Shown here: positions 20,025 to 41,953 of the stretch, piece after piece
Numbering within the stretch: the first letter of the stretch is position 1
How the letters are laid out: each line of letters opens with the position of its first letter
Origin: Leptonemataceae bacterium
GTDB lineage: Bacteria > Spirochaetota > Leptospiria > Leptospirales > Leptonemataceae
Assembly: GCA_965227295.1 (NCBI GenBank)
Contig: OZ245742.1
Location: forward strand, 5,874,551 to 5,938,550
DNA: 64,000 bases
Reading direction: 5' to 3'
Program-made: the position numbers and the translations under genes
Notes under the pieces: generated by a model
The model's database searches: none
What the model was told of the DNA's origin: nothing
The model's input: the letters and a program-made list of their open reading frames with translations, nothing else

Positions 20025-21872
20025 TTGATTTTTTCAACTTACACGTTCCTGGTCTTTTTCGCCTGCGTCTTCGTCGCGCAGTGGATTCTGCTGCCGACCC
20101 TGGTGCCGGAGCGGTTCCGGCTGCGGGCGCTGCACGTCCTGCTGCTCGTCGCATCGTACATCTTTTACATGTTCAGCGTGTGGGAGTACGGGTTGCTGAT
20201 CGCCGTCTCCACCCTCGTCGACTACGTCGCCGGTCTCATCCTCGCGCATTATGATCGCGCGTTGCCGGAGGCCCCGCCGCTCCCGCCGCGGGTGGCGACG
20301 AACTTCGGCGTCGACGGCGTGGAACCCGCGGCCCGGGAAGCCGACACCCCCAACGATGCCGAAGTCGAAGCCCACGTCGCCCGGCACGGCGCGGCGCGGG
20401 AGGCCGCCGGCGAGATGGAGCTCAAAAACACGGCGTTGATCCGGCGCACGGCACTGCTGCTGAGCCTCGCGATGAACCTGGGGATTCTCGCGTACTTTAA
20501 GTACTCGGACTTCTTCATCGTCTCCGTGATCCAGTCCATCAACGCGATTGCGCCGGGCACGGTGGGCCCGGAGGATACGGACGCGCTGTTGTTTCGGTTC
20601 ATTCTACCGGTGGGCATTTCGTTTTTTACGTTTCAGTCCATGAGCTACACCATCGACGTGTACCGCGGCGTAATGTTCGTCGAACGCAACTTTGTGCGCT
20701 TCGCGCTCTTCGTTTCGTTTTTTCCGCAGTTAGTGGCCGGGCCCATCGTCACGGCCAAAGAGTTTATTCCGCAATTGTACCGGCTGCCGCGCTTCGACTT
20801 CGAGCGCATGCGCACCGCGGGGCGCTGGTTCGCCCTGGGGTATTTTAAGAAGGTGGTGCTCGCCGACAACATGGCGCCGATAGTGGATCAGATCTATGCG
20901 CGGCCGGAGTTGTATGACGCCGCCGGTCACTGGCTCGGCGCCTGGGCGTTCTGGGTGCAGGTCTACTGTGATTTTTCCGGTTATTCGGACATGGCCTGGG
21001 GCACGGCCATCTTTTTGGGGTACGCGCTGCCGGAGAACTTTCGTTTGCCGTACTTGAGCAAGTCCGTCACCGAACACTGGCAGCGCTGGCACATTTCGCT
21101 GATTCGCTGGAACCGCGATTATCTGTATTTTCCGCTCGGCGGCAACCGCGCGGGGTTCTGGCGGCACAAGTTCAACGTCTGGTTTACGATGTTCGCCGCC
21201 GGCGTGTGGCACGGCGCCAACTGGACGTTCGCGCTCTGGGGCGCGATCCACGGATTGATATTAGCGGTAGAGTCTGCTGTGCGTGAGTTAAGGAAGAAGT
21301 CGAAGGATGCCTCGGAAGCGGCGATGCGGGCGGCTCAGCAGGCGCGAGCGGGAGCTGTACAGGGCGCGGGCGGCGAACGGGGCGCGCGCGAAAAATTGAG
21401 TGCGAGTTCTGCATCCACGAGTGCCCAGGGTGCGGGTGAAAACGGACGGGGCGCGGGCAAAAAATTGTTGACATCTGAGAAAAAACGTGCTCGCCCCCTG
21501 CCGCGGTGGCGCTCGGAGCGCTGGTATCTGGACGTGCTGAAGTTCACTGCGACTTCTTTCGTTACGGTGTTCTTCGGCACTATGTTTCGCTCGGCAAATA
21601 TTAACGATGCGTTCTTGATTATGGAACGCATGTTGTTTCTGAACGTTCCGGTGCAGGCATTGTCGGTGGCGGCTCTGGAAGACAGCGTGATGTGGGGCGT
21701 GTTGTTCGTCTATGCCGGGCATGTGTTGGGCTGGTATGTGTTCGAGCGCAAATGGTTGCGGGACTTCCGGTTGCACGCCTGGGTGGAGTGCGTGTTGTGG
21801 GTCGTGTTCGTGTTTGTGTGCTGGCAGTTCGGCTACTCGGGCGTGGCCCCGTTTATCTACTTTGTGTTCTAG
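20025..21872 (+). CDS. MBOAT family O-acyltransferase (AlgI/DltB-like)
   Basis: LPVGISFFTFQSMSY, FFPQLVAGPI, YCDFSGYSDMA, GVWHGANWTF, PFIYFVF; TTG start; its stop codon lies inside the element's target duplication. Confidence 0.92.
   Translation: MIFSTYTFLVFFACVFVAQWILLPTLVPERFRLRALHVLLLVASYIFYMFSVWEYGLLIAVSTLVDYVAGLILAHYDRALPEAPPLPPRVATNFGVDGVEPAAREADTPNDAEVEAHVARHGAAREAAGEMELKNTALIRRTALLLSLAMNLGILAYFKYSDFFIVSVIQSINAIAPGTVGPEDTDALLFRFILPVGISFFTFQSMSYTIDVYRGVMFVERNFVRFALFVSFFPQLVAGPIVTAKEFIPQLYRLPRFDFERMRTAGRWFALGYFKKVVLADNMAPIVDQIYARPELYDAAGHWLGAWAFWVQVYCDFSGYSDMAWGTAIFLGYALPENFRLPYLSKSVTEHWQRWHISLIRWNRDYLYFPLGGNRAGFWRHKFNVWFTMFAAGVWHGANWTFALWGAIHGLILAVESAVRELRKKSKDASEAAMRAAQQARAGAVQGAGGERGAREKLSASSASTSAQGAGENGRGAGKKLLTSEKKRARPLPRWRSERWYLDVLKFTATSFVTVFFGTMFRSANINDAFLIMERMLFLNVPVQALSVAALEDSVMWGVLFVYAGHVLGWYVFERKWLRDFRLHAWVECVLWVVFVFVCWQFGYSGVAPFIYFVF
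21865..21872 (+). repeat. 8-bp target-site duplication TGTTCTAG (left copy)
   Basis: The same 8-mer lies at 50992-50999, directly after the right end of the element. Confidence 0.92.
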
Positions 21873-23118
21873 ATCTCCGGTCTACAATCCACACAGGCCC
21901 GCGAGCGCGCGCGCCGAGGTTCGGTAGCCTCGGCGCGCGCGTTCGCGGGGCGGACCGTGTCAGACTCGCAGCGGGGCGGCGAAATCGCGCGCGTTCTCGG
22001 GAGCCCCGCCCGTGAGACTCACAGCCGCGGCCCTCTTTCGCCCCCCTGCCGGACGCCCGCTGCGAAAACAAGATTCAATCGGCGATTTCCTCAGCTGAAT
22101 CTGCTCTATTATACTGCGCTAGCGCAGGATGTTCTGGGCCGGGCGTATCCGAAGTTCTGTCCGCATTGTGATGTTGAAATGCACACGCCTGTGGCCGGGC
22201 GCGAGACCGCGGTGCGTTGCGAAACCTGTCACTACATGGGCTCGCGCACGGCGGGCACCCCGCTGGATCACTTAAAGTTACCTCTCTGGACGTTTAGCTA
22301 TGTGCTTGGCGAGGCCGTGCAGACGTTCCCGCAGATGATCTCCGCGGCGCAGATTCAACGGCGGCTCGGATGTTCGAAACAGGCTTCGCTGAATCTCAAG
22401 CGGCGCCTGCAATTGTTCCTCACGGACCTCGTGCCGGCCGTCCGCGAACTGGTGAAGCGCGATCTTGAAGAGGCGTTTTCTGACCTGAAATTGCCGGAAA
22501 ATCAAGACGTTTCGAAGTTTGTCGCGAATAAGCCCGTGGTGCACAGCGACACCCTCGCCTTGTTCTCGGCAACGCAGCGCAGTAACGGCGGTCGCGCAAG
22601 ATGGAAACATACCGGACAGACCGCAAGCATCTATCTTTCGGACAAAGTCGCGGAGCAACGTGGCAAAGTCCAGATCGGAACGCTCGCGCATACCGTTGCG
22701 ATTATGAACGGGCCGGTGCTACTTACGTCCGTTCGCGATCAAACACAGAAGAGTCTTGAACCTTCTTTCAACTTCTTGCCGCGCCTGACGCCGATCATGA
22801 CGGACGAAGGCACGCCGTGGCTGTCGCGTTACTTTCCGAATCATCGCGCCGTAAATCACAGCGCCCGCGCGAAGGACAAACAGCGCAGCAAGTGGGCGCG
22901 GGATCGCTGGAGCCGCAACGGCGTCCACAATCAGGTCGCCGAAGGCAACCAGCGAATCGTTAAGATGAGTTTCCTCGCAGCTTACGGATACTTCGATCCG
23001 AAGTACTCGCAGTTGTATCTCAATGAATACTCCGCGCTCAAGGCCCTGAAGCTCCACGGCCTCGATAGTCTGCTTTCTCTATCAAATCCGACCGGTGTGG
23101 GGAATGTAGACCACAGAT
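21873..23118 (+). mobile_element. 1,246-bp IS1595-like module, copy 1
   Basis: Left end ATCTCCGGTCTACAATCCACAC; right end GTGTGGGGAATGTAGACCACAGAT (imperfect IR). Both ends are fixed to the base by where the copies diverge. Confidence 0.9.
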
Positions 23119-23741
23119 ATAGCGCCCTGCCCTCCGGGCTTCCCGTCGGCACGGGCCTCAGCATATTTCATCGCAAAGTGCAGGAGAATCTGTATATCCC
23201 ACCGCAATTGCACGATCGCAAGGGCCTCGACTATAGCGACTCGCGGCGGCAGATTCGCGGAAATCTCAAGCTGATGTTGGACGAACCGGACCTGTTTGCC
23301 GCCAAACAGGCCCATGTAGATTACCTGAATTCGTTTCAAGGCCTGCCGCCGTTTCGAAAGCAGAACGAAAAGAAATACGCCGCGCAAGCGTCGGCGCTCT
23401 GGAACGCGCTATCGCGACACGACGCGAAGCTATCCGCCGACGTCGCGCGCTCCGTGCGCGTCAATCATCGCATGGTATTAAGGATGATTCGACTGTGGAC
23501 GAAGCTCGGCCTCGTCGAGGCGCGTGAGATTCGCGGCGAGAAGGATCGCCGTAAACAGTTCTGGGTGTCGCGGCGCGTGTCGCTTCTGCCAGCGCTGCTG
23601 TATACCTGGGATCTCGACGGATTCCGCAATCAAACCGAGGCAGGCGTGCCCGTGGACCGCACGAAGAAAACCCGGCGCGGTAAGCACGGGATAACCGGCA
23701 AAGAACGTTCTAAATTTATTCAGGAGATGTATGATGGGTAA
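21957..23741 (+). CDS. IS1595-family DDE transposase with C-terminal winged-helix extension (start uncertain)
   Basis: CPHC..CETC Zn ribbon, HTH (ISAAQIQRRLG), VHSD, IMTDEG..H.AVNHS, HNQVAEG, KY..LYLNEY; the frame reads through the right IR for about 207 more residues. Confidence 0.88.
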   Translation: MSDSQRGGEIARVLGSPARETHSRGPLSPPCRTPAAKTRFNRRFPQLNLLYYTALAQDVLGRAYPKFCPHCDVEMHTPVAGRETAVRCETCHYMGSRTAGTPLDHLKLPLWTFSYVLGEAVQTFPQMISAAQIQRRLGCSKQASLNLKRRLQLFLTDLVPAVRELVKRDLEEAFSDLKLPENQDVSKFVANKPVVHSDTLALFSATQRSNGGRARWKHTGQTASIYLSDKVAEQRGKVQIGTLAHTVAIMNGPVLLTSVRDQTQKSLEPSFNFLPRLTPIMTDEGTPWLSRYFPNHRAVNHSARAKDKQRSKWARDRWSRNGVHNQVAEGNQRIVKMSFLAAYGYFDPKYSQLYLNEYSALKALKLHGLDSLLSLSNPTGVGNVDHRYSALPSGLPVGTGLSIFHRKVQENLYIPPQLHDRKGLDYSDSRRQIRGNLKLMLDEPDLFAAKQAHVDYLNSFQGLPPFRKQNEKKYAAQASALWNALSRHDAKLSADVARSVRVNHRMVLRMIRLWTKLGLVEAREIRGEKDRRKQFWVSRRVSLLPALLYTWDLDGFRNQTEAGVPVDRTKKTRRGKHGITGKERSKFIQEMYDG

Positions 23742-24060
23742 AGTATCGAAGAAGAAAGCCAGTAAAAAAGCGAAGGAGGAACCGCTGAAGTTCTTCGCAT
23801 CGCACTTTTGGGACCTCATGAAGTCTCAGGACTACAAGTGCGCACTCACCGGGCGTGAGTTGACACCGGACAACACCGAAGTCGAGCTGCGCGTGCCGTT
23901 CAAGAGCGTGGGCCGGACGGAGTTCTCGAATCACTACATCGTCGTGCGACAGTTGGCATACACGGCACGGCATGTGAGCGAAGACGAGATCGTCGAGCTG
24001 GCGGCCGACATCATCCGGCATCGCGGCAAGGAGTTCGGCTATGCGCTCCGCAAAGCGTGA
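23731..24060 (+). CDS. Degenerate HNH-like small protein, overlapping the transposase stop
   Basis: QDYKCALTGREL...ELRVPFKSVG....SN resembles the HNH scaffold without the catalytic His. Confidence 0.6.
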   Translation: MMGKVSKKKASKKAKEEPLKFFASHFWDLMKSQDYKCALTGRELTPDNTEVELRVPFKSVGRTEFSNHYIVVRQLAYTARHVSEDEIVELAADIIRHRGKEFGYALRKA

Positions 24061-24697
24061 AGACCTGTTCCCGGCGTGGGGCGTCGAGGCGGCGCTCTCG
24101 CGCTTAAGAGGCCGGCAGAAGAAGTTTGCTGCGTCGCCGATGGAACGCAAGCACGTCGCGCGTGACAAACGCTCGTGGAGCTATGCCTGCGTCTCGGCCG
24201 TGAACAAGATGCGCTATCGGCACCGCGCCGTCTTTCAGGAATCGCGCGAGCCGGATGCGTGGTCGTGGGTGATTGCCGTGCAGAAAAAGAAGCTCGTGCG
24301 GAAGGTTGACCCGGTCGCGGCGTGGCGGGATGCAGAGTATCGGATTCTGGAACGATACTACGGCCGGCTGCGCGAACCTCAATCCAAGCAGGATCGCGAT
24401 CGCTGGCGGTATGTGATTATTCGGCAGCGGTCGTACTTGCGGCGACTACAGGGGCGAGCAAAATCCGGTCCGCCTTCAAACGACTGGGCCAGAGTTCTTA
24501 AAAAAATGGCCCGGATCTCTGCGACACCATCGGAACATAGCAGTGGCCGTGGTTCCTGGAACTGGCGAACGACTGTGGCAGCCCAACGAGAGAAGCTACG
24601 GAACGCCCGCAGGCAGACGGGATGGATGAAGCTTGAAAGCCGACTCCAGTTCAATCCCGCAGCTCGACCATATCATATTTCTGAACCTGTCCACTAA
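24041..24697 (+). CDS. Basic Trp/Arg-rich hypothetical protein with internal pseudo-repeats
   Basis: 218-aa ORF overlapping the previous gene; recurring Trp-initiated basic helices. Confidence 0.55.
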   Translation: MRSAKREDLFPAWGVEAALSRLRGRQKKFAASPMERKHVARDKRSWSYACVSAVNKMRYRHRAVFQESREPDAWSWVIAVQKKKLVRKVDPVAAWRDAEYRILERYYGRLREPQSKQDRDRWRYVIIRQRSYLRRLQGRAKSGPPSNDWARVLKKMARISATPSEHSSGRGSWNWRTTVAAQREKLRNARRQTGWMKLESRLQFNPAARPYHISEPVH

Positions 24698-25022
24698 GGA
24701 TTTGAGCCTTTGCGTAGTGTTCATCGATCACGGACGTGATGCGAATACTGCCAACCTCTTCGCGCTGATAGTAAACATCATCAGTTCCCGTATCTATAGC
24801 TTTTGTCCGAAAGACTTCAAGCTTCTGCCCGGGCTCCGCACCGTCTCGATCACCGATACAAATCACGACTACTTCTTCTTTCACATCGACAACGTTGCCT
24901 CGCATGCCGTACTTGTGATAGAACTTCGAAAAGCTTGCACACGCGAGCGCACTCGAAATCAAAAACAGACATGTCATCAATCGAATCGTTAATTTTATAT
25001 GTTTCATAGAGGATAGATTCAA
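24651..25022 (-). CDS. Small lipoprotein with a beta-barrel resembling the FlgT C-terminus
   Basis: Lipobox LAC; I.IG.RDG...G..L.V...VG.I.I..V....A.A pattern. Confidence 0.6.
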   Translation of the reverse strand: MNLSSMKHIKLTIRLMTCLFLISSALACASFSKFYHKYGMRGNVVDVKEEVVVICIGDRDGAEPGQKLEVFRTKAIDTGTDDVYYQREEVGSIRITSVIDEHYAKAQILSGQVQKYDMVELRD

Positions 25023-25218
25023 CGTAGAATCGGATTAAGTCCATCAAATTCGCGACGGCACTCCAAAAAATTCATAGCCTTCGGAGAACCGCACCTCGCG
25101 ACAATGATCGTTTCATAATGCACGAGAAAGACTACGAGTGCCTGTCGATACACTTCACGAACCATGAATGATACAGTGAGCCGTGACCTGACCAAAACTA
25201 CTTCAATCGTCAGTTTTC

Positions 25219-27276
25219 TTAATCATCGGTCTCGTCGCGCGAAAGATCCACGCTGCGCTTAAGCAACTGCGCGTTCACCGCGACGATCACGGTGCTGAGA
25301 CTCATAAACACCGCGCCCACCGCCGGACTCAGCATGATCCCCAGCGGCGCGAGCACACCTGCCGCGAGGGGAATGGCAACGACGTTGTAGGCCGTCGCCC
25401 AGATTAGATTCTGAATCATCTTGCGATGCGTCGCACGACCGAAGAGCACCAGGTTGCTGATGTCTTTGGGATTGCTGTGCACGAGCACGATGTCCGCCGT
25501 CTCCGCGGCGACGTCGGTGCCGGAGCCGACGGCAATGCCCACGTCCGCCTGGGCCAGGGCCGGCGCGTCGTTGACGCCGTCACCGGTCATGGCGACGAAC
25601 TCGCCGTCGCCTTGCAGTTCTTTAACGATGTCCTGTTTCTCGTGAGGCAGCACGCCCGCATAAAACCCGTTCAGGCCCAGCTCGTCGTGGACGCTCTTCG
25701 CGACGGTCTCATTGTCGCCGGTGGCCATCATCGTTTTGATGCCGGTGTCGTGCAAAATGCGAATCGCCTCGGGAGACTCGGGGCGTATGGAGTCCGCCAG
25801 GCCGACAAAACCCTTGAGTTCTCCGTCCACGACCAGAAAGACCACCGTCTCCGCGCCGGACGCGGCGGCCGAATCGGGAATCGTTATGCCGTTTTCCTTT
25901 AAGAAGCCCGGGCTGACCACCTTCACCTCGCGGGAATCCACGGACGCCTGCACACCCTTGCCGGTGATCGATTGAAAGCCTGACGCCTCCGGGACCGACA
26001 GCTCGCGCTTTTCACAGGCTTGAACGATGGCCTGCGCAATAGGATGCTCCGAATTTTTTTCGAGGGCCCCCGCAAAGCGCAGCACGTCATCCTCCGAAAA
26101 CGAGTCCGACACGCTCACGACCCGCTGCACGCCGAATTCGCCGGTGGTCAGGGTGCCGGTCTTGTCGAAGACGATCGTAGAAATTTTGCGCGCGCTTTCG
26201 AAGGCGGTCCGATTGCGAATCAGCAGGCCGTTTTGTGCGGAGATGGCCGTCGAAATCGCGGCCACCAGGGGAATCGCCAGACCGAGGGCGTGCGGACAGG
26301 AAATCACCATCACGGTCACCATGCGTTCCAGAGCGAAGACGAACTCGTAGCCGAGATAGAGCCAGACCGCTAAGGTCAGCGCGCCGGCGGTTAAGGCGAC
26401 GAAGGTCAGCCAGCGCGCGGCCCGGTCGGCCAGGCGCTGGGTGCGGGACTTCGTTTGCTGGGCCTCTTCGACCAGGCGAATCACTTTAGAAAGATACGAG
26501 TCCTCGCCGGTCTTGTTGACGCGAATGCGCAGCGAGCCCTCACCGTTGACGGAGCCGCCGATCACTTCGTCGCCCGCGGACTTGCGCACCGGCTCCGACT
26601 CGCCGGTGAGCATGGATTCATTGAGATAGCTGTTACCGTCTTCGATGGTGCCGTCGGTGGGAACCTTTTCCCCGGGCTTGATCAGCAACAGATCGCCGGA
26701 CTGTACGTCCTCCAGCGCCACGTCGTTCACGTCGCCGTCCTCGTCGATGCGATGCGCTTCGTTGGGCATCATCTCCACGAGCAGTTCCAGGGCGCGGGAC
26801 GCACCGAGCACCGAGCGCATCTCGATCCAGTGGCCGAGCAGCATGATGTCGATCAGCGTCGCCAGCTCCCAGAAGAACATCTTGCCGGACAGGCCGAAGA
26901 CCACCGCCGAACTGTAAGCGTAGGCCACGAAGATGGCCAGGCCGATTAGAGTCATCATGCCCGGGTTGGCCCGGCGCACCTCATCGAACGTGCCGCGCAG
27001 AAACGGCCAACCGCCGTAGAAAAAGATCATCGACGACAGCCCGAACAGAACGTAGCGGCTCCCTGGAAACTCCAGGGAGAAACCGAGAAACGACTGGATC
27101 ATCGGCGAAAGAACGAGGACCGGCACGGTCAGGACGGCCGATACCGCCAGGCGCTTCTTGAAGTCCCGGATCATTTGCCGGTGATGATCGCCGTGATTGT
27201 GACCGCCGTGGCCGTCGTGATTACCGTGGTCGTGATTGTGTTCGGCGTGTTTTTCGTGGTCTTCGTGATGTTTCAT
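25219..27276 (-). CDS. copB: Copper-translocating P1B-3 ATPase (CopB type)
   Basis: His-rich N-terminus, TGES, CPHALG, DKTGT, SEHP, GDGVNDAP, YN, MSLST. Confidence 0.93.
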   Translation of the reverse strand: MKHHEDHEKHAEHNHDHGNHDGHGGHNHGDHHRQMIRDFKKRLAVSAVLTVPVLVLSPMIQSFLGFSLEFPGSRYVLFGLSSMIFFYGGWPFLRGTFDEVRRANPGMMTLIGLAIFVAYAYSSAVVFGLSGKMFFWELATLIDIMLLGHWIEMRSVLGASRALELLVEMMPNEAHRIDEDGDVNDVALEDVQSGDLLLIKPGEKVPTDGTIEDGNSYLNESMLTGESEPVRKSAGDEVIGGSVNGEGSLRIRVNKTGEDSYLSKVIRLVEEAQQTKSRTQRLADRAARWLTFVALTAGALTLAVWLYLGYEFVFALERMVTVMVISCPHALGLAIPLVAAISTAISAQNGLLIRNRTAFESARKISTIVFDKTGTLTTGEFGVQRVVSVSDSFSEDDVLRFAGALEKNSEHPIAQAIVQACEKRELSVPEASGFQSITGKGVQASVDSREVKVVSPGFLKENGITIPDSAAASGAETVVFLVVDGELKGFVGLADSIRPESPEAIRILHDTGIKTMMATGDNETVAKSVHDELGLNGFYAGVLPHEKQDIVKELQGDGEFVAMTGDGVNDAPALAQADVGIAVGSGTDVAAETADIVLVHSNPKDISNLVLFGRATHRKMIQNLIWATAYNVVAIPLAAGVLAPLGIMLSPAVGAVFMSLSTVIVAVNAQLLKRSVDLSRDETDD

Positions 27277-27306
27277 AGATTCCTCCGATGTACCCGGGTG
27301 CCTTAT

Positions 27307-27597
27307 TCAGGGACGCCGGGCCGTCGCCTCGCGCAGCGAAAAGTTGTAAATCCCGGCGATGCACGCACCACAGAGATACGCCAGCACGAAGCTCTGGAAA
27401 AAACCCAGGCCGGCCTCCCACCAGGGCACGTCCATGCGAATCACGCCGCTGACGTCCAGGCCGTGCAACAGGCTGTTGAAAAAGAGAATCGTCCCTTCGC
27501 GTCCCACGCTCATCATCAGAATGATGCAGCCGGCGTACAGCAGCGCCGCCGTGACGCCCCAGGCGATACCGAACTTAAGTACGTTTATGCGAATCAT
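27307..27597 (-). CDS. Small two-TM membrane protein (DUF5676-like)
   Basis: FFNSLLHGLD between two TM helices; copper-operon context. Confidence 0.65.
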   Translation of the reverse strand: MIRINVLKFGIAWGVTAALLYAGCIILMMSVGREGTILFFNSLLHGLDVSGVIRMDVPWWEAGLGFFQSFVLAYLCGACIAGIYNFSLREATARRP

Positions 27598-27799
27598 GCG
27601 AACCTCCCCGGTGAGAATGACCTTCGTGGCCGTCTCCGCCGTGCATGCCGCTCATAAGAAAAAAATGCGCGGCGAAACAAATCATCAAAAAGAAGAACAG
27701 TGACCACGAGTCGCCGGGCAAAAAGGCCGGTGCGAAAAATATCAACAGCAGCGGCAGCACGCAGATCAAAAGCATCCATATCATGTGAAATCTCATCAT
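27575..27799 (-). CDS. Small His/Met/Cys membrane protein (DUF2933-like)
   Basis: HMIWMLLICVLPLL...C..H..M.GMH plus His tail; GGAGG RBS before 27799. Confidence 0.65.
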   Translation of the reverse strand: MMRFHMIWMLLICVLPLLLIFFAPAFLPGDSWSLFFFLMICFAAHFFLMSGMHGGDGHEGHSHRGGSHDSHKRT

Positions 27800-27857
27800 C
27801 AAACCTCCGAAACCAGAACAGCTCCCCGCCGCTTTTTCCGGGACGGGGAGCTTCGTT

Positions 27858-28400
27858 TTACATTTGAAACTCGGCTTCGTGAACGTGCTTCTTTCCACCG
27901 TAGGTGAACTCGGCCTTCACTTTGTAAGTTCCGGAACCCTGCATGGAAAAACCGATGCCGTGGTGGTGCATGCCGCCGCCGGCCATCACGTGGCCCTCAC
28001 CGTCGGCCAGGACCTTGCCGTCCGGCCCGGTGACCGTGATCTTGAGGCCCTTGGCGTCCTTGATGACCTTCTTCGTATCGAGTTTCATCAGCGTCAGGCT
28101 GAGGTGATGCTGACCGGTGTCGTGCATACCGTGCATGTCCACGTTCATCATCTTCGCCATATCCGCGTGGCCTTCGGCGGTCATGAGGTCGAAGGCGACC
28201 TGAACGCCGTCGTGTTTGACGACCTTCGTCATGTTTTTTCCCGAGTGCATGCCGGGATTATGGCCGTCCATCATATCGCCGGAGTGATGGTCACTCATCG
28301 CACCGCCGTCATGGTGATCCCCCGGCTCGCCGCCGCAGGCAACGCCCAATAAGGCGCCCAAGACGAGGACCGGAATCAATTTCAATAAACTCATAAACAT
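27858..28400 (-). CDS. Met/His-rich periplasmic lipoprotein, probably Cu/Ag-binding
   Basis: AAGGAG RBS, lipobox VAC, many M/H clusters, Ig-like C-terminus. Confidence 0.75.
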   Translation of the reverse strand: MFMSLLKLIPVLVLGALLGVACGGEPGDHHDGGAMSDHHSGDMMDGHNPGMHSGKNMTKVVKHDGVQVAFDLMTAEGHADMAKMMNVDMHGMHDTGQHHLSLTLMKLDTKKVIKDAKGLKITVTGPDGKVLADGEGHVMAGGGMHHHGIGFSMQGSGTYKVKAEFTYGGKKHVHEAEFQM

Positions 28401-28435
28401 CTCCTTATATTAAGTTAAATAAAGACTGGCGCCCT

Positions 28436-29053
28436 TCAATGGTCTCCGGTTTCCAGAAATTCTCCCCGCGGGCCGACGCCGTGCAGGTGCGTGAGTTCGG
28501 CCCCGAAGTGCCCCGCCGCGGAGACCAGGACCGCGGCAGCCAGCATCGTAGCGGCGGCCACGAATTCCAGCCAGCGGCGACGCAGCCCAAGGCCGGCGAG
28601 TTGCAAAGCAAGCGCCGCGGCGGCCGTGTAGATCGTGGCGTAGGCGAAAAAATCGTGGTTGGCGAGGACCGCCCGGGCTTCCGGAGTAAGACCGGTCGTG
28701 TGCGGGTGCACGAAGTAGGCCGCAACCACGCCGCCGATCAGTCCGACGGCGCCCACGGCGATACCCGTCCGGATCAGCGTGTCGTTTCGGAAGATTAAAC
28801 CGACCGGATACAGAATCGCCGCGAGCAACAACAGGACGATCGGGAAGTGAACGACCAAAGGATGCAGCGTCGGAAAGGCCGCGAGAGGCGGCGCGACCGC
28901 TTCCAGAAGTCCGGCCTCGGGAGTGGATTCCGCGGCACTCTCCCCGGATGCGTGGTCCCCGGGCCCGTGGGCATGCAATGGCAGCGCCGCCAGATAGATG
29001 GCCAACCCCAGGGCTAATATTTTCTGAATGATATTTAAGACCCTTGCTTTCAT
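28436..29053 (-). CDS. DUF2231-like membrane protein
   Basis: LHPLVVHFPI and GH.GAEL...HGVG. Confidence 0.75.
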   Translation of the reverse strand: MKARVLNIIQKILALGLAIYLAALPLHAHGPGDHASGESAAESTPEAGLLEAVAPPLAAFPTLHPLVVHFPIVLLLLAAILYPVGLIFRNDTLIRTGIAVGAVGLIGGVVAAYFVHPHTTGLTPEARAVLANHDFFAYATIYTAAAALALQLAGLGLRRRWLEFVAAATMLAAAVLVSAAGHFGAELTHLHGVGPRGEFLETGDH

Positions 29054-30318
29054 TAGGAGCTCCCCCGGACGACCGCGGCCAGAAGCAACCCCGCGGCGAG
29101 CCAGGCCGCGCAGAGATAAACCACGATTCGTTTCAAGCTTACGCCCGCGTCGCCGCCGTGGTCGTGATCATGACCGCCCGCGCTCTGCTCCCGGCGCGCC
29201 CGACGATAACGATACGCGAGCCAGGCCATTCCGAGGCTTACCAGAACGAAGCCGAGGTTTAGATAGAACGTGTAGTCGATCTTAATGCGCGTCACTTCCT
29301 CGACGACCCGGCGGCTCTCCGGCGTGATCCCGAACCAGGCGAAAGCGCCGTTGAGAATCAGGGCGGTGGATACCATGCTGATATACATAATCAGCGCAAT
29401 ATAGAGCGCGATCCTGGTGCCGTAGTACTTGCGATTGACCATGACCAGAGGCGGCACGATCAAATCCGAATAGATGAACGCCATAATGCCCGCGAAAAGC
29501 ACGCCGTTGGCGTTCAGAACCGTGGCGAGGGGAATATTACCCATAGAACCGATGAATGTGGCCGCGGCGACAAAGGGACCGACGAGGGCGTTCTCGACGG
29601 CGATCAACCACGCCGGTAACGTCTCCGTGTACCCGGTTAAGAAGATCGCCTCCCAGAACGACTGCGGGACCAGCGTCGCGATGATGCCGGCGATGGTGAA
29701 GCCGATGAGGATCTCTTCCCAGACCATGCCCCACTCCGCGAAAAAATTCCGCCCGACGCGATTCCAGCCGTCGGCGCTACGAATGCGTTCGCGCCACGAA
29801 AAATCTTCGGTGGCTTCGGTGGCGTGCTTCTCGACGCGACGCCGGGCCGCCTCGGCCCATTCGCGGGGCAACGTCCCACGCATGAGCACGCTGCTGATCG
29901 CAATCAGGACTATGCCGCCGACGAGTTCAGCCATGAGGAACTCAAAGCCGAGAAAGATATAAATCAAAATGCCCAGCTCGATGACGAGGTTCGTCGAGGC
30001 GAACATAAAGGCGACCGTCGCAATAAAATGCGCCCCCTTGGCGACCAGGGTCCGGGCCGCCGCCAGGGCCGCGAAAGAACACGACGACGACAGCGCTCCG
30101 AAGGCCGTGGCGATGCCGATGCTGCGCGGCCCGGCCTCGCCCAGATTCTCCGCCAGGCGCCGACGCGGTACGAAGGCCTGGATCATCGCGCTGATCGTGT
30201 AGCCGAGGACGAAGGCCCAGCCGGCCTTCCAGAAAAACCCCAGCGACGCGTACGCGGAATCGCTGATAGCCGGAATCATCGATACGATAGTTTCCATAAA
30301 ATTATCTCCACTGAACAA
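29053..30318 (-). CDS. Predicted permease (DUF318/ArsP family)
   Basis: SSCSFAALA, ASTNLVIELG, duplicated multi-TM architecture. Confidence 0.8.
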   Translation of the reverse strand: MFSGDNFMETIVSMIPAISDSAYASLGFFWKAGWAFVLGYTISAMIQAFVPRRRLAENLGEAGPRSIGIATAFGALSSSCSFAALAAARTLVAKGAHFIATVAFMFASTNLVIELGILIYIFLGFEFLMAELVGGIVLIAISSVLMRGTLPREWAEAARRRVEKHATEATEDFSWRERIRSADGWNRVGRNFFAEWGMVWEEILIGFTIAGIIATLVPQSFWEAIFLTGYTETLPAWLIAVENALVGPFVAAATFIGSMGNIPLATVLNANGVLFAGIMAFIYSDLIVPPLVMVNRKYYGTRIALYIALIMYISMVSTALILNGAFAWFGITPESRRVVEEVTRIKIDYTFYLNLGFVLVSLGMAWLAYRYRRARREQSAGGHDHDHGGDAGVSLKRIVVYLCAAWLAAGLLLAAVVRGSS

Positions 30319-30321
30319 GAA

Positions 30322-33300
30322 TCATAGATTGCGCCCGGGCTTCGGGACGGTCGCCGCAACTTCCGGCGTGAGCACTTCATCCGCCTCGACTTCGTGAAAC
30401 GGACTCGCCGCTCCGTCCCTGCGCAGGCGCCGCAACTGCAACCATTCGTAGATGGTCGGAATCAACACGAGCGTCACCAGGGTGTCGGTGACCAGGCCGC
30501 CGATCATCGGCGCGGCCAGGCGTTTCATTACGGAAGAGCCGGAGTCCGTGGCCCACATGATTGGAATCAAACCCAGCAAGGTCGTCGCCACAGTCATGAT
30601 CTTCGGCCGCACGCGGCCCACGACGCCTTCAAGCATCGCGGCGCGCAGTTTCTCCGGTGTATCCAGGCCGTGTTCGCGTTTGTGTTTCGCGAGCACCGTG
30701 TCGAGGTACACAAGCAGCACGATGCCCGTCTCCACGGACAAACCCGCCAGAGCAATGAAGCCAACGTCCGTGGCCACGCTTCGATTGTAGCCGAGCAGGA
30801 ACATCAACCATACGCCGCCGGTTACCGCGAAGCCCAGGCAGCCCAGGATGATCGTCGTCTCGGTAAAGTTCTTAAAGTGCAGGTAGAGGAGCACGATGAT
30901 GGCGATAAGCGTCAGTGCGCCGGCGATGCGCAGCCGTTCGGCGGCGCGCTCCAGATACTCGTATTGGCCGCTCCACACCAGGGTTACGCCCGGGGGCTGC
31001 TGCAACTCGCCGGCCTTCAGCTTGTTGCGAATCAGCGCCTTCGCGTTCTCAACGTAGCCGGCCACGTCCTGGGAACTCTTCAAATCCACGAAGATCCACG
31101 CGGTCTTGCGGGCGTTTTCGGTTTTGATGCCCGGCGGCCCGGTGCGCAGGCGCAGCTCCGCCACGTGGGAAATCGGAATGTTCGCCCCCGACGGCGTGCG
31201 CACCCAGACGTCTTTTAACTTCTCCAGATCATCTCTTAGCTCGCGAGGATAACGCACGTTCACGGGATAGCGCGCCAGGCCCTCGACCGTTTCGGTGACG
31301 TTCATCCCGCCCACGGCCGTCATGATCGTATCCTGCACGTCGCCGACGGTCAGCCCGTACCGCGCCGCCGCCTCGCGATTGATGACGTAGTCGATGTAGC
31401 GGCCGCCCGTAACGCGCTCCGAAACCACCGAGGCCGTGCCGGGCACGGTCTTGAGCACGGCTTCGAGTTCGCTGCCGTAGCGCGCCAGTTCGCTTAAGTC
31501 GTCCCCGAGCAACTTTACGCCCACCGGCGTCTTGATGCCCGTCGCCAGCATATCGATGCGCGTGCGAATGGGATACGTCCAGGCGTTGGTCAGCCCCGGG
31601 AACTGAATTTTGTCGTCCAGCTCTCGCATGATTTTTTCGACCGTCATGCCCGACCGCCACTCCGAGCGGTCTTTCAGGATGATCGTAGTCTCGATCATGG
31701 TGAGCGGGGCCGGGTCCGTGGCCGTCTCCGCGCGGCCGATCTTACCGAAGACGTGCTTTACCTCGGGCTGCTCCATGATGATGGCGTCCGTGCGCTGCAG
31801 AATTTCCCGGGCCTTGGTAATCGAAATGCCGGGCAGCGTGGTGGGCATGTACAGGATGTCGCCCTCGTTCAGCGGAGGCATGAATTCACCGCCGATGCCT
31901 TTCACCAGCTTCTTGCCGTTCGAAAAAGGAACGGGAATGCCGTAGATTGGGATCAGGGTCAGTAACATAAAACCACCGAAAGCTAAGAGAAACGTCGCCT
32001 TGCGGTCCAGAGCGGCGTCGATCAGCGGGCGGTACGTGCGCACGAAAAAGCGCGCGATGGGGTTGTCCTCTTCCGCCCGGGTGTCGCCGCGCACAAAAAG
32101 CGAAATCAGCACCGGGATGATCGTAATTGCGATGACGGCGGCGAAGGCCATGGCGAAGGTCTTGGTCAACGCCAGGGGGCGAAAGAGCCGGCCGGACTGC
32201 TCTTCCAGCACCAGGATCGGCAGAAACGAAACGGTAATGATCAACAGCGAAAAGAAGAGCGCCGGCCCGACTTCGAGAGACGCCCGCCGGACGACGACGT
32301 CGTGGGCGGCGTCGGGATCGTGCTCCCGGTGCTTGTGCACGTTTTCGACGAGCACGATCGAGGCGTCCACCATCACCCCGATGGCGATGGCGATGCCGCC
32401 GAGGGACATGATATTGGCGTTGATGCCGAGAAAGTCCATCAGCGCCAGGGACGCGAGAATCCCGATGGGCAGCGTCACCACGGCCACTAAGGCCGAGCGA
32501 GCGTGCATTAAGAAAACGGCGATAACGATCGCCACGACGAGCATCTCCTCGACCAGCTTCCAGGAAACGTTTTTGACGGCGCGATAGATCAAATTCGAAC
32601 GATCATAGGCCGTGCGAATTTCGACCCCCTCCGGCAGCGACGGTCGAATCTCTTCGATGCGCTGCTTCACGCGTTCAATGATTTCGAGCGCGTTTTCGCC
32701 GAAGCGCATCACGACGATGCCGGCCACCACCTCCCCCTCGCCGTTCCACTCGGCGATGCCCCGGCGAATCTCCGGGCCGATCTGCACGTGGGCGACGTCG
32801 TCGATGGTGATGGGATTGCCCTGATCGTCCACGCGCAACACCACACTGCGAATATCGTCGACGGACTGGATGTAACCCAGGCCCCGCACCATGTACTCGG
32901 TCTCGCCCATCTCGATCAGTCGCCCGCCGGTGTCGCGGTTCGAACGCGCCAGACGCGAGCGCACGGTTTCGAGGGAAATGTCGTGCAGCAGCAAGCGCGT
33001 GGGATCCACCTCGACCTGGTACTGCTTCACGAAGCCGCCGATGCTCGCGACCTCGGCCACGCCTTTGAGGCTGGCGAGTTCGTAGCGAATGCTCCAGTCC
33101 TGGAGCGAACGCAGCTCCTGGTTGTTTAACTTTCCGCTGGTGTCGGTTACTATGTACTGATAGACCCAGCCCACGCCGGTGGCGTCGGGACCGAGCTGCG
33201 GCTTCACGCCCGGCGGCAGGCGCGACGACGAGTTGATGTACTCCAGCACCCGCGAGCGCGCCCAGTAGATGTCCGTGCCGTCCTCGAAGATCACGTAGAC

Positions 33301-33576
33301 CATCGAGAAACCGAAGAACGAATAGCCCCGCACCACCTTGGCGTGGGGCACGGCCAGCATGGCCGACGTCAGCGGGTAGGTAACCTGGTCTTCGACGACC
33401 TGGGGGGCCTGGCCGGTGTACTCGGTGTAGATGATCACCTGCACGTCGGAGAGATCCGGAATGGCGTCGATAGGAATGGTCTGGATCGCCCGCAGTCCGG
33501 CGAAGACCACGGCCCCGGCGGCGATCAAGACGAGCGCCTTGTTCTTGAGCGAAAATTCGATAATGCGTGCAATCAA
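30322..33576 (-). CDS. cusA: CusA/SilA-type heavy-metal RND efflux pump
   Basis: DAIPDLSDVQVI, GPDATGVGWVYQY, FMPPLNEGD, RIDMLATG (Met ligands of monovalent HME pumps). Confidence 0.92.
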   Translation of the reverse strand: MIARIIEFSLKNKALVLIAAGAVVFAGLRAIQTIPIDAIPDLSDVQVIIYTEYTGQAPQVVEDQVTYPLTSAMLAVPHAKVVRGYSFFGFSMVYVIFEDGTDIYWARSRVLEYINSSSRLPPGVKPQLGPDATGVGWVYQYIVTDTSGKLNNQELRSLQDWSIRYELASLKGVAEVASIGGFVKQYQVEVDPTRLLLHDISLETVRSRLARSNRDTGGRLIEMGETEYMVRGLGYIQSVDDIRSVVLRVDDQGNPITIDDVAHVQIGPEIRRGIAEWNGEGEVVAGIVVMRFGENALEIIERVKQRIEEIRPSLPEGVEIRTAYDRSNLIYRAVKNVSWKLVEEMLVVAIVIAVFLMHARSALVAVVTLPIGILASLALMDFLGINANIMSLGGIAIAIGVMVDASIVLVENVHKHREHDPDAAHDVVVRRASLEVGPALFFSLLIITVSFLPILVLEEQSGRLFRPLALTKTFAMAFAAVIAITIIPVLISLFVRGDTRAEEDNPIARFFVRTYRPLIDAALDRKATFLLAFGGFMLLTLIPIYGIPVPFSNGKKLVKGIGGEFMPPLNEGDILYMPTTLPGISITKAREILQRTDAIIMEQPEVKHVFGKIGRAETATDPAPLTMIETTIILKDRSEWRSGMTVEKIMRELDDKIQFPGLTNAWTYPIRTRIDMLATGIKTPVGVKLLGDDLSELARYGSELEAVLKTVPGTASVVSERVTGGRYIDYVINREAAARYGLTVGDVQDTIMTAVGGMNVTETVEGLARYPVNVRYPRELRDDLEKLKDVWVRTPSGANIPISHVAELRLRTGPPGIKTENARKTAWIFVDLKSSQDVAGYVENAKALIRNKLKAGELQQPPGVTLVWSGQYEYLERAAERLRIAGALTLIAIIVLLYLHFKNFTETTIILGCLGFAVTGGVWLMFLLGYNRSVATDVGFIALAGLSVETGIVLLVYLDTVLAKHKREHGLDTPEKLRAAMLEGVVGRVRPKIMTVATTLLGLIPIMWATDSGSSVMKRLAAPMIGGLVTDTLVTLVLIPTIYEWLQLRRLRRDGAASPFHEVEADEVLTPEVAATVPKPGRNL

Positions 33577-34985
33577 TGGTTGTGCCCTCCCATCGGATCG
33601 GGTGCTTCATCCATAGAATCGCCGTCGCCCGCTCCCGCGGAGCCGCTCCCGCCCCGCATTTTACGCACGGCCTCCTGGATGCGCGACTCGGAGTCTAACA
33701 AAAACTGACCGGAAGTTACCACGGCCTCGTGTTCGGAGAGGCCGTCGAGGATTTGCAGGCGGTCGTTTTCGTCGGTGACGCCCACGCTTACGATCCGCGG
33801 CTCGAAGGCGCCGTTGCCGCGGTAGACGAAGGCGAGCGTGCGTTCCCCGGTGCGGATGACCGCCGAAGACGGCACCGTCAGAAACTCCCCGTCCAGCGTG
33901 CGGCGCAGCTTGAGCGTAGCGTACATGCCGGGCTTCAACGTGCGCCCCGGATTCGCGAAGGATACACGGACGCGCAGGTCCCGGGTCTCCGCCCGCATAA
34001 ACGGAAACACGAAGCTGACCCGTCCCTCGAAGGTCTTCCCCGGTACCTGGGGGACGATCATCTCCACCGGCAGCCCGGTCTCCACGAAGGGAATATCTTT
34101 TTCGGGAATGTGAATGTAGGCCCACACGGTCGAAAGATCGACGATGCGAAACAGATCCGTGCCCTCGGCGATCTTCGCGCCCTGGACGACGTTTTTTTCG
34201 ACGACGACGCCGGAAATGGGCGCGTGGATCGTGAGCAGCCGCGACGGCGTGCCGCGCTTCTCCAGCGCCGCGATCTGCGCCGCGCTGATGTTCCAGTACT
34301 GTAATCTACGGCGAGCGGCGCTTAAGAGGCGCTCCACCTCCGGCGAAGGCCCCAGACTCTGCTTGCTTTTATAGAGCTGAAGATACTCCTCCTGAGTCGC
34401 CACCAGCTCCGGGCTGTAGACGCCGGCCAGGGCCTGGCCCCGGCGCACGCTGGCGCCGGTAATGTTCACGTAGAGTTTTTCGACCCAGCCGCCGAAGCGG
34501 GCGTTCACCACGGCTTCGGCGTTTTCGGCAAAGTCGATGTGCGCCACGGCGCGAATCTCTTTCGTAATCTCCCGGCGCGTAACGATCTCGGTGTTCACAC
34601 CCATTTTTTGAATGACCGCCGGGTCCACCCGCACGATGGGCGGGGCCGGCGCACTGCTCGCATCATCGGCAGCTCCGTCGCCGTCGGCCGCGCTCATGTT
34701 GGCGCCGTCAGCCTCCGCCCCGGAGCCGCCGTCGTCGCCGCCGTGCACCGTGCCGTCGTCGTGCAGGTGCGGCTTCATCGGAACCAGGTCCATACCGCAA
34801 ATCGGGCACGAGCCCGGGCCGTCCTGAATGACCTGGGGATGCATGGGGCACGTGTACAGACTCGACGCCTCCGGCGCCGACGCACCGCCCCCGCGCAGAG
34901 CCGGGACGGCGAAGTAGATACCGGCGCCGAGTCCGCCCAGAGCCAGGACAATGATTAACATGGTAATATACTTTTTCCGATTCAT
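33573..34985 (-). CDS. cusB: CusB-type periplasmic adaptor with heavy-metal-binding domain
   Basis: YTCPMHP..PGSCPICGMDLV, YSPEL, LKPGMY, SGQFLLDSES. Confidence 0.9.
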   Translation of the reverse strand: MNRKKYITMLIIVLALGGLGAGIYFAVPALRGGGASAPEASSLYTCPMHPQVIQDGPGSCPICGMDLVPMKPHLHDDGTVHGGDDGGSGAEADGANMSAADGDGAADDASSAPAPPIVRVDPAVIQKMGVNTEIVTRREITKEIRAVAHIDFAENAEAVVNARFGGWVEKLYVNITGASVRRGQALAGVYSPELVATQEEYLQLYKSKQSLGPSPEVERLLSAARRRLQYWNISAAQIAALEKRGTPSRLLTIHAPISGVVVEKNVVQGAKIAEGTDLFRIVDLSTVWAYIHIPEKDIPFVETGLPVEMIVPQVPGKTFEGRVSFVFPFMRAETRDLRVRVSFANPGRTLKPGMYATLKLRRTLDGEFLTVPSSAVIRTGERTLAFVYRGNGAFEPRIVSVGVTDENDRLQILDGLSEHEAVVTSGQFLLDSESRIQEAVRKMRGGSGSAGAGDGDSMDEAPDPMGGHNH

Positions 34986-38804: not shown

Positions 38805-39682
38805 TACCGGAGAGTAAATTTTTCTAACCGGGTTTGCTCTGATGAAGAACTCTCAGGACACTAAATCACCCGGTCTGAAGGTTCAGACCCCTGAGGCTAC
38901 CGCTCGACAATCATAAAGCAAGGATCAATGGAAGTTCCGCCTGGTAGACAAGGCCGCTCTATCCGGCAAAAGAAACACAAGTGTCAAACCAGAAATCGCC
39001 GATTGAATCTTGTTTTCGCAGCGGGCGTCCGGCAGGGGGGCGAAAGAGGGCCGCGGCTGTGAGTCTCACGGGCGGGGCTCCCGAGAACGCGCGCGATTTC
39101 GCCGCCCCGCTGCGAGTCTGACACGGTCCGCCCCGCGAACGCGCGCGCCGAGGCTACCGAACCTCGGCGCGCGCGCTCGCGGGCCTGTGTGGATTGTAGA
39201 CCGGAGATATGCGCGGATTTTCGAGCGGCTGCGGGCATGAAACGAGGGTCGATGACGTACAGTGAAGCTGTCCAGCAGAAATTCACAAAAACGGCCTCGG
39301 TGGATTTGTGGCCACAAAGGCGGAGCATTTGTCGAGGCGCGTGGTGCGGTCGGGGGACATCGCGCCGGCGGAAACCGGACGCATCCCGGGGTTCACGGCC
39401 GGCCGGCGGATCTGGCGGGCGGTGCGGCCTGGTGTGAATCCGGGGATTAAGAAAACCGGGGCGGTGGCGGTCGGATCGCGGGGGCCTCGCGCCGCGGACA
39501 GCCTTCGAAGCGGGGCGGCGCGGAAATCGGCCTGCCCGCGAGCGCCGCGCGCCTCGACAAATGCGAGGGGCGTGTGGCCACAAGAACGGAAGAGAGGTAA
39601 AGAACATCATCAGCGGCAAGGGAACCACGGACGACGGAATCAGAAAACTGTACAAGCTTGAGATGAAAAGAGACTAACTCGC

Positions 39683-39799
39683 GATCACGGAAGACGATCA
39701 CGGAAGACGATCACGGAAGACGATCACGGAAGACGATCACGGAAGACGATCACGGAAGACGATCACGCAAAGGAATCACGCAAAGGAATCACGCAAAGA
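39683..39799 (+). repeat. 13-bp tandem array, 9 units: 6x GATCACGGAAGAC plus 3x RATCACGCAAAGR
   Basis: Counted directly. Confidence 0.95.
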
Positions 39800-41127: not shown

Positions 41128-41146
41128 CAGCCGCCCCCAATTAAGT

Positions 41147-41953
41147 TCAGTTAGCTAATTTTAGAATCCGTGTTGCTCCGCGAAAAACAACGGCAAACAC
41201 GATCGCGCCCACGACCAGATCCGGCCATTTGCTTTCCAGCCAGTAGACGAGAAGTCCGGCGAGGATGACCCCGCCGTTTACAATAATGTCATTCGACGTA
41301 AAGATCGCGCTGGCCTGCATATGGGCTTCTTTGCTTCGTGCTTTCGTTATTAGCCAGAGTGAGACAACATTCCCCAGGAGGGCCACGCACGAAACGAGGA
41401 TCATCCACCGAAAGAGCGGCGTATCACCTTCGCCAAAAAACCTTCTCACGACTTCCGAAAAACCCAGAATCGCCAGGCTTATTTGAAAATAACCGCTAAT
41501 CTTCGCGACTTGCTTCTGTCGAGACGCCGCCGCCCCAACGGCCATGAGGCTCAGGCCGTATACAATCGAATCGGCGAGCATATCGAGGGAGTCGGCGATC
41601 AATCCCAGCGAATTGGAAATCCAACCGGCGAGCATTTCCGCAATAAACAACGTAAAGTTTATGCCCAGAACAGACCACAGAATACTTTTCTGGCGAACAG
41701 GGCCGGAATTAAGCAACGGCAAATCAGACGCAGAAGTATCTTGAAGCTCGTCCTGCAGGTCCAGCTCACTGATGGCCTGCTGAATGGGCAGCACGTCCCC
41801 GGTGTAAAAGACTTCCAGCGTCCGCGCCGGAATGTCAAACTCAAGACGCCGCACCCGGTCAAAACCGGCCAGCTTCATGCGAATCATTTGCTCCTCGGAC
41901 AGGCAATCCATCTGGCGAATGATAAACTTGCTTTTTTGGACACGATCAGTCAT
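41147..41953 (-). CDS. Cation-efflux (CDF-like) transporter with an N-terminal HMA-like domain
   Basis: MDC.SEE N-domain; ADSLDMLAD, IFTSND, WPDL. Confidence 0.82.
   Translation of the reverse strand: MTDRVQKSKFIIRQMDCLSEEQMIRMKLAGFDRVRRLEFDIPARTLEVFYTGDVLPIQQAISELDLQDELQDTSASDLPLLNSGPVRQKSILWSVLGINFTLFIAEMLAGWISNSLGLIADSLDMLADSIVYGLSLMAVGAAASRQKQVAKISGYFQISLAILGFSEVVRRFFGEGDTPLFRWMILVSCVALLGNVVSLWLITKARSKEAHMQASAIFTSNDIIVNGGVILAGLLVYWLESKWPDLVVGAIVFAVVFRGATRILKLAN

Follow-up and report, generated by a model that had tools for sequence, protein, structure and literature searches.

Why should a transposase gene read in frame through the right inverted repeat of its own element and continue for another 207 codons into a further, predicted DNA-binding domain? 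The question is raised by a long open reading frame (ORF) in a 64,000-nucleotide stretch of DNA from a Leptonemataceae bacterium (assembly GCA_965227295.1, contig OZ245742.1, positions 5,874,551 to 5,938,550), referred to here as the window. The source genome (G000) is a single contig of 5,938,550 bases, and the window is its final 64 kb. We examined it alongside a sister genome of the same genus (G065), a genome from another family of the order (G012), and other relatives. Our best explanation, which we consider probable as a whole, is that the transposase belongs to a distant, Leptospirales-specific element of the IS1595 family, that the ORF in the window is its C-terminally complete gene copy, and that the element forms IS26-like pseudo-compound transposons or cointegrates with a strict choice of target. 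More tentatively, and with somewhat less than even confidence, we propose that the gene disassembles itself: it would be complete only in an excised circle, integration would switch it off, and its tail would direct the insertion of stacking modules behind a stop codon.

The following features make up the ORF and the repeat-bounded unit, here called U, from which it emerges.

21873-23118, plus strand: unit U, with zinc ribbon, helix-turn-helix (HTH) and DDE core; no ATG before the zinc ribbon and no stop codon.
21873-21895, plus strand: left inverted repeat (IRL), ATCTCCGGTCTACAATCCACACA.
21957-23741, plus strand: long ORF, DDE core plus C-terminal extension, 594 amino acids (aa) from a GTG.
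22158-22235, plus strand: zinc ribbon CxxC...CxxC(H), aa 68-93, a weak match to Pfam Zn_ribbon_IS1595.
22710-23030, plus strand: Pfam match to DDE_Tnp_IS1595, aa 252-358.
23096-23118, plus strand: right inverted repeat (IRR), in frame inside the ORF and encoding VGNVDHR (aa 381-387).
23119-23741, plus strand: C-terminal extension beyond the IRR, aa 388-594, 207 aa.
23349-23573, plus strand: winged HTH, aa 465-539, predicted from AlphaFold2 and structure matches.

The boundaries of repeated copies set U at 1246 bp, and its 23-nt ends agree at 19 of 23 positions; the best inverted repeat within 21400-24800 has 27-nt arms at 21869-21895 and 23096-23122 that are 81% complementary. The 23-mer of the left end occurs four times in the window and that of the right end three times, with none expected from 100 shuffles. 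An initial annotation of this DNA had described an ORF that crosses its own right inverted repeat in frame and encodes VGNVDHR there, and we found both this arrangement and the peptide quoted from the extension as described. The frame of the long ORF is open already from 21873. Within U the frame has no stop codon ahead of the right repeat and terminates either in the spacer that follows or 207 codons beyond; the gene therefore lacks what a strict insertion sequence (IS) has, a start and a stop codon between the inverted repeats.

Copies of U are arranged in larger modules, whose parts around the insertion site are as follows.

20025-21872, plus strand: MBOAT-family gene (Pfam MBOAT, E 5.9e-24), the insertion target.
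21865-21872, no strand: 8-bp target copy TGTTCTAG, which recurs as the spacer separating every pair of tandem units.
49632-49745, plus strand: conserved left flank (LF), with an ATG at 49716, 10 codons ahead of the IRL.
49746-50991, plus strand: right-hand U of module a, 100% identical to 21873-23118.
50992-50999, no strand: 8-bp spacer TGTTCTAG between tandem units.

Each module runs in the order U, extension, small genes, cargo, LF, U, with the U copies in direct orientation. Units also stand head to tail in arrays with a fixed period of 1254 bp and a constant spacer, the last unit continuing into the extension. Each long copy carries the same U as the short one that opens the following array. 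In the source genome the copies at window positions 21873, 49746 and 51000 and at genome position 8754 are 100% identical; those at genome positions 10008 and 34459 are 100% identical to each other and 86% identical to the window copy; further copies lie at 35713 (77%) and 36976 (85%, frameshifted), and more partial copies exist. Paired copies within a module were near-identical throughout: 100% in both modules of G000 (77-86% between modules), in all four of G065 (all other U pairs 65.8-86.3%), in both of G012 and in the one module of G085, and 99.8% in the one module of G114. Overall, U identity was 99.8-100% within 10 of 10 modules and 65.8-86.5% between modules. Copying of U with every integration would produce such near-identity, and all 10 modules have the form of a pseudo-compound transposon, with identical direct copies around cargo and the target duplication outside.

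The insertion point is equally regular. The stop codon TAG of the MBOAT gene (21870-21872) directly abuts the element, and the gap between gene and left repeat was 0 in five of five MBOAT-adjacent loci. Spacers match the end of the host gene: TGTTCTAG in G000, TGTTTTAG as both MBOAT end and spacer in G065, and, at the locus of a second MBOAT paralogue, AGTTTTAG, the end of that gene. Two modules of G012 lie between three copies of TTGTAGTT, and the gene upstream of sites of this type encodes a SpoIIE-domain protein whose stop codon lies within the duplication. Among 11 related loci, four were empty, five were occupied at the same point and two differed; one of the empty sites, in G002, shows an overlap of precisely 8 bp between the two flanks. 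No 8-bp duplication flanks U at its junctions with LF and with the extension. Because of the terminal repeats, the host-matching 8-bp duplications and the empty sites in relatives, we conclude that the modules are insertions with 8-bp duplications, made repeatedly at identical phosphodiester bonds. A gene end lay at the duplication in seven of the eight sites examined; a rule that insertion always follows a stop codon was considered and rejected, as it fails at the eighth, in G114.

The transposase core resembles the IS1595 family in several respects. IS1595 elements generate 8-bp target duplications, and terminal inverted repeats and 8-bp duplications are both present here. Pfam DDE_Tnp_IS1595 (PF12762) matched aa 252-358 with a score of 31.5 bits (E 2.1e-7), narrowly above its cut-off of 27, and the protein has an acidic triad with a lysine seven residues past the last acidic residue, as is characteristic of the family. 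In an alignment of 27 sequences (A1), D283, E329 and K336 were invariant, D198 was at least 90% conserved, and C88 and C91 of the zinc ribbon were nearly invariant; D198, D283, E329 and K336 are probably the catalytic residues. The CxxC...CxxC(H) motif is present, with a weak match of 12.1 bits to the Pfam zinc ribbon PF12760 (cut-off 25.4); the corresponding protein in the automatic gene calls (P0001, 520 aa) begins after the first CxxC. The NCBIfam model NF033547, "IS1595 family transposase," scored 18.3 bits against the LF-U protein (cut-off 75) and did not match the 594-aa ORF.

Beyond the IRR, the extension proved to be widespread within the order. Of 8000 candidates scored in a search of 5.8 billion proteins, 153 matched at E <=0.001; those with a name belong to Leptospira, Turneriella and "Leptospirales bacterium." In the 27-sequence alignment, long forms of ~520-635 aa, 34-66% identical, carry the extension, and in short forms the protein ends precisely with the V.NV..R motif that the right repeat encodes. 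Of the order's 151 genomes, 40 have the extension. Its matches include 33 at E <=1.5e-20; 25 of these lay in open frames of 562-691 aa, and the remaining 8 were cut by a contig end ~80-230 nt away. At every readable locus (25 of 25) the extension followed the DDE core, and these loci represent two families of the order, so that the linkage on which the initial annotation depended recurs in other genomes. The dN/dS of the extension, which bears on the same annotation, was 0.09-0.39 (10 pairs). Given the 25 loci and these ratios, the extension is a conserved part of the gene under purifying selection and not an accidental fusion. Its matches fall into 48 cluster representatives among 1.84 billion, the short ones being indistinguishable from fragments or from gene calls with internal starts. 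The initial annotation had placed the extension outside the mobile module. It does lie beyond the IRR, but it is a conserved gene part that always travels in the larger module.

We also examined the fold of the extension. AlphaFold2 modeled aa 378-594 from a 25-row alignment with a mean pLDDT of 72.7, and within it a helix-strand-helix-helix-hairpin at model residues 88-162 (aa 465-539) with a pLDDT of 84-90, in keeping with the folded winged helix that had been predicted from sequence. The topology, H1-B1-H2-H3-B2-B3, is confidently predicted and matches that of solved winged helices. With the VIA aligner, the model agreed well with Zalpha (1qbj; Z 8.0, root mean square deviation [rmsd] 1.6 Å over 63 residues); Z was at least 5 in 621 of 1000 chains. 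A language-model atlas returned small winged-helix clusters with scores of ~0.9. The initial annotation had called the domain MarR-like, and this stands at the level of the fold. Foldseek placed MarR-family chains at the top of its list, yet with E values of only 0.015-0.06; in the VIA alignments, MarR rows had an rmsd of 4-8 Å across 74-84 residues and a Z of ~7, and good alignment was confined to model residues 87-170. The global TM score was only 0.2-0.25. VIA Z values of 7-8 were reached alike by Zalpha, SelB, ArsR, IclR, MarR and PadR. Of the Pfam models MarR, MarR_2 and HTH_27, none passed its cut-off: HTH_27 (aa 477-535) scored 13.6-15 bits against 22.2 and was matched by 2 of 25 relatives at E ~0.02-0.03, and a Pfam scan of the 25 extension relatives gave scattered subthreshold matches at most. 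The extension alignment yielded no meaningful match in a profile search of the PDB (best E 0.18), and one homologue bears a precomputed PF12802 label. The modeled fold is that of a generic winged helix, not specifically MarR, and its DNA binding is putative.

If the 3' part of the gene lies outside U, the same appears to be true of its 5' end. The sequence places the start codon outside the repeats as well, which goes beyond the initial annotation. The features concerned are these.

49716-50999, plus strand: short ORF from the LF ATG through U, 427 aa, ending ...HRLF* at the TAG of the 8-bp spacer.
21898-21949, plus strand: GC-rich palindrome with 22-nt arms, 95% complementary, between the IRL and the first GTG and within the reading frame.

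We compared 19 copies of U that abut a spacer, a group that includes all long copies and the solo short copies. Between left repeat and zinc ribbon they contain no in-frame ATG in 1840 codons, and 7 of the 19 have neither ATG, GTG nor TTG there; two long copies in G012 lack all three across 109-115 codons. Every copy preceded by LF, in turn, has an ATG 4-10 codons outside the left repeat, the peptides starting MPAAARKSAH|IS in G000, MAATARKSVH|IS in G065 and MSGA|YSF in G012. The LF of G012 has a near-consensus promoter, TTGACG-N17-TATAGT, just upstream. RNA folding of 21873-21975 gave -66.6 kcal/mol (z -6.1), with a hairpin that overlaps the GTG at 21957. Read-through of an in-frame TAG was rejected as a general source of the long protein, the upstream stop being in frame in this genus and not in G012.

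The left flank carries repeats of its own.

49373-49515, no strand: perfect 13-bp tandem arrays, with 231 bp between their end and the IRL of the right-hand U downstream.
39682-39798, no strand: perfect 13-bp tandem array, the inverted partner of 49373-49515.
49615-49647, no strand: palindrome TGTGGCCACA, two copies 23 bp apart in the left flank.
38992-39322, minus strand: inverted partial copy of the first 217 bp of U with 114 bp of left flank.

G065 has comparable arrays, built from other unit sequences, ~146 bp ahead of the IRL. The array unit varies among modules and genomes, and its position in LF upstream of the left repeat is fixed. The two left flanks checked in G012 have no short-period array, though G012 keeps the extension. 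Further perfect 13-bp arrays, of 2 to 18 copies, occur at G000:C1:8290-8523, 20360-20458 and 32094-32244. An inverted partial copy (left flank plus the first ~217 bp of U) was present in every examined module of this genus, some kilobases downstream of the core genes and with a constant truncation length, also in G065, L052 and L053; these inverted flank copies keep only the proximal TGTGGCCACA palindrome.

Two small genes follow the extension.

23731-24060, plus strand: orf109, overlapping the end of the long ORF, with an HNH-like fold in which the usual catalytic His is not conserved.
24041-24697, plus strand: orf218, basic and Trp-rich, overlapping the end of orf109.

The long gene, orf109 and orf218 are coupled by overlapping stop and start codons; of 17 distinct places, all have orf109 right behind the long gene and 14 have orf218. 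In Pfam and NCBIfam scans the three core genes showed no relatives of TnsA-E or TniQ, and orf218 had no match at all. The AlphaFold2 model of orf109 (pLDDT 73.9) has the beta-beta-alpha fold of HNH domains, and HNH domains of Cas9, IscB, retron, Cap5 and McrA proteins made up nearly all of the top 25 VIA rows, at a modest Z of 5-6.3; a PDB profile search gave 0 matches. HNH motifs have their catalytic and metal-binding residues at expected positions. In the orf109 alignment (A3), the invariant residues were C37, L39, G41, L44, E52, P56, N67, Y69 and R80, with neither an invariant His nor Cys pairs, so that the HNH catalytic and metal-binding residues are not conserved. On the model, orf109 may be a noncatalytic DNA-binding partner. 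A complex prediction for the extension with orf109, run without controls, scored 0.00.

The rest of module a consists of cargo, and the window ends in a repeat of the module's beginning.

25219-48054, no strand: cargo, comprising a P-type ATPase, an ArsP permease, two RND/MFP/OMP efflux sets, a MerR regulator and CDF transporters.
51000-64000, plus strand: second U-extension-cargo copy, 100% identical to 21873-34873 and reaching the contig end.

Judged by its predicted products, the cargo in the window is metal resistance, and cargo varies between modules. Between the efflux genes, a 9-bp tandem repeat of 18.7 copies (45955-46122) sits within a minus-strand ORF, 45576-46274, that Pfam matches to the collagen triple helix. 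The 13-kb repeat (21865-34875 and 50992-64000) is 100% identical up to the contig end, and the contig start (G000:C1:1-8430) repeats window 41084-49513 at 99.7%. Either the module has truly been amplified in tandem, or the 13-kb repeat arose as an artifact when the assembly was closed across repeats. Two public sequencing runs matching the stretch (0.95 and 0.91 of sampled words) gave contigs that break inside the repeat, with the expected junction types only; a third shares 0.07 of sampled words, a fourth is connected by its species label alone, and no RNA run was among the matching runs. In the array outside the window, the rightmost full-length solo unit (G000:C1:36976-38220) has a frameshift and the unit after it is truncated, in keeping with an age of copies that increases with distance from the MBOAT gene. 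A 1.4-kb insert at G000:C1:38221-39631 sits inside the CTAG of the spacer between two units and has ~18- to 22-nt inverted repeats at its ends and a transposase-like ORF of 379 codons.

How could such a divided gene work? We propose that it consists of three parts: LF, which holds the sole usable ATG and in one lineage a promoter; U; and the extension, trailed by the coupled genes orf109 and orf218. A circular unit of LF, U, extension and cargo with a single U would integrate by copy-in, as in IS26, and U would be duplicated. Integration would part the ATG and promoter from the extension, leaving the long copy headless and the short copy tailless, and only an un-split form, such as the circle, could yield the full-length protein. 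If the two U copies recombined, the circle would be freed and a solo U left between spacers; solo U copies between two spacers are indeed seen in the arrays. The winged-helix extension, perhaps with orf109 and orf218, would provide the strict target choice or autoregulation. The tail is the obvious candidate for either role because it is a predicted DNA-binding domain additional to the N-terminal zinc ribbon and HTH. Both the split-gene switch and a part of the extension in target choice or regulation, the latter already suggested by the initial annotation, are plausible on this evidence.

Several observations weigh against this account. Neither a circle nor an un-split LF-U-extension was seen, the contigs of the public runs breaking in the repeat, and a plasmid collection yielded one partial Leptospira match (53% cover) and no un-split element. 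Copy-in is deduced from the structure of the modules, and the binding of DNA by the winged helix is a prediction. Placement in the IS1595 family is marginal by score (31.5 against 27 in Pfam, 18.3 against 75 in NCBIfam). In this genome, a simple scan for sigma-70-like promoters detected none in LF or upstream of the long ORF. Twelve of the 19 spacer-abutting copies, including that with the GTG at 21957, have a GTG or TTG before the zinc ribbon, and integrated copies could yield the long protein through weak internal starts or if translation re-initiated past the in-frame TAG. Start codons, moreover, are not depleted specifically in this frame (19 in frame, 42 and 16 in the other two). The site in G114 has no real gene end at the duplication, only a 5-codon frame. 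Finally, in ISApl4, an IS1595-family element, the circle is the IS itself (PMC12561309), which would instead fit copy-out/paste-in of a whole compound element.

That last point leads to the classical compound transposon, in which two independent U insertions would have captured extension, cargo and LF and the outer ends would move the whole, a history that we consider unlikely, if not negligibly so. We hold its corollary to be similarly unlikely, namely that the short LF-U protein is the active one and the long ORF, translated from GTG or TTG or by re-initiation, an accessory or regulatory variant. The short form does have an ATG and a complete Zn-HTH-DDE core, the GTG or TTG codons of those 12 copies would serve such a variant, the upstream TAG is in frame with U in this genus, and ISApl4 makes IS-only circles (PMC12561309). 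Independent insertions are nonetheless hard to square with U pairs that are 99.8-100% identical in 10 of 10 modules while the modules themselves differ by 14-34%. Translation of the long ORF from alternative starts meets G012-type long copies with no ATG, GTG or TTG for 109-115 codons, and a strong hairpin overlapping the GTG at 21957.

In a second alternative, the winged helix would be a repressor or an iteron binder of the 13-bp arrays or the TGTGGCCACA palindromes, controlling expression or copy number and not the target. Winged-helix dimers commonly bind sites of the palindrome or array type. Every LF of this genus has perfect 13-bp arrays 146-231 bp upstream of the left repeat, and two palindromes stand 23 bp apart in the LF. 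Against such a role, the array unit differs between modules, the inverted LF copies lack the second palindrome, and the two G012 left flanks have no short-period array while the extension is conserved there. Binding of the arrays, which the initial annotation had offered as a function for the domain, consequently fails as a general one, and we judge the repressor to be rather improbable.

Much less credible is a chance fusion, in which an ordinary IS1595-type IS without a stop codon landed in frame ahead of a host winged-helix gene; equally remote is its consequence that the read-through is local and inconsequential. U does stop where canonical IS1595 transposases stop, ~50 aa past the E(7)K motif, and the extension matches just 48 cluster representatives. 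An accident would not explain the identical junction codon and extension in two families at all 25 readable loci, nor the low dN/dS, nor the missing 8-bp duplication around U at the LF and extension junctions; a single recent fusion that was then transferred is countered by the 34-66% range of identity. That the copies are not mobile at all, but a host gene family with internal tandem duplications from unequal crossing-over and gene conversion, might be read into their clustering in few regions, the fixed 1254-bp period and the constant spacer, and is the most improbable proposal of all in view of the terminal inverted repeats, the host-matching 8-bp duplications, the empty sites in sister species, the conserved DDE triad and the cargo that differs between modules.

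We therefore return to the distant IS1595 element forming pseudo-compound transposons, and compare it with systems already known. Insertion sequences are defined as repeat-bounded segments with a gene of their own, and here a conserved lineage puts the start and a putative DNA-binding domain outside. Its relatives in Leptospira are annotated as hypothetical or truncated transposases. Tn7 inserts at attTn7, a fixed point just downstream of glmS, and leaves that gene intact. The outcome here is alike, a fixed point 3' of a conserved host gene that is left intact, although the transposase comes from a different DDE family. A DDE transposon from an IS family not known for it here uses a single chromosomal "safe harbor" with base-pair precision. 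Should the winged-helix tail prove to choose the target, a one-protein DDE transposase would here carry a site-selection module that is both compact and retargetable.

Expression units that are assembled only in the excised circle are known from the circle-junction promoters of IS3 and IS30 elements and from Tn916. The present proposal shares the idea that integration takes the expression unit apart; unlike in those elements, where a promoter alone is assembled or brought upstream, here the coding sequence itself would be joined, with the ATG on one side and the C-terminal domain on the other. Such an architecture would be a simple structural means of coupling transposase expression to the excised state. 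With MarR regulators, which lead the Foldseek list, the extension shares the predicted winged-helix fold, but it is fused to a transposase.

Within the IS1595 family, the closest comparison is with ISApl4 and Tn7560, for which 8-bp direct repeats, a detected circular form and a pseudo-compound resistance transposon are described (PMC12561309). The two systems share the Pfam superfamily, 8-bp repeats and directly oriented copies. ISApl4 is 712 bp long, has a self-contained 654-bp gene and uses many dispersed A/T-rich insertion sites (PMC12561309). The unit described here, by contrast, is 1246 bp long, has a gene that extends across both ends, is accompanied by a winged helix and two accessory genes, and keeps to a strict target.

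The overall plan is most like that of IS26 and the IS6 family. IS26 pseudo-compound transposons are identical, directly oriented IS copies around resistance cargo, with 8-bp duplications and arrays of modules (PMC7986276), as here. The IS26 translocatable unit, one IS and its cargo in a circle that integrates by forming a cointegrate, has its counterpart in the circle that we propose (PMC7986276). Long arrays of resistance modules have been built at the fixed site, as IS26 does for antibiotic resistance. The differences are as clear. The transposase is IS1595-like by Pfam and not of the IS6 type; neighboring modules share no IS copy but have an 8-bp duplication between them; and insertion is confined to one fixed host site. 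The IS6 gene lies wholly inside the IS (PMC7986276); in the present gene, the start codon and 207 codons fall outside the repeats. The openly accessible literature, to which our search was limited (subscription journals were outside its scope), contained no account of this arrangement that we could find. It is a new variant of IS1595-type elements and of pseudo-compound transposons, set apart by a gene that extends across both ends and by strict target choice.

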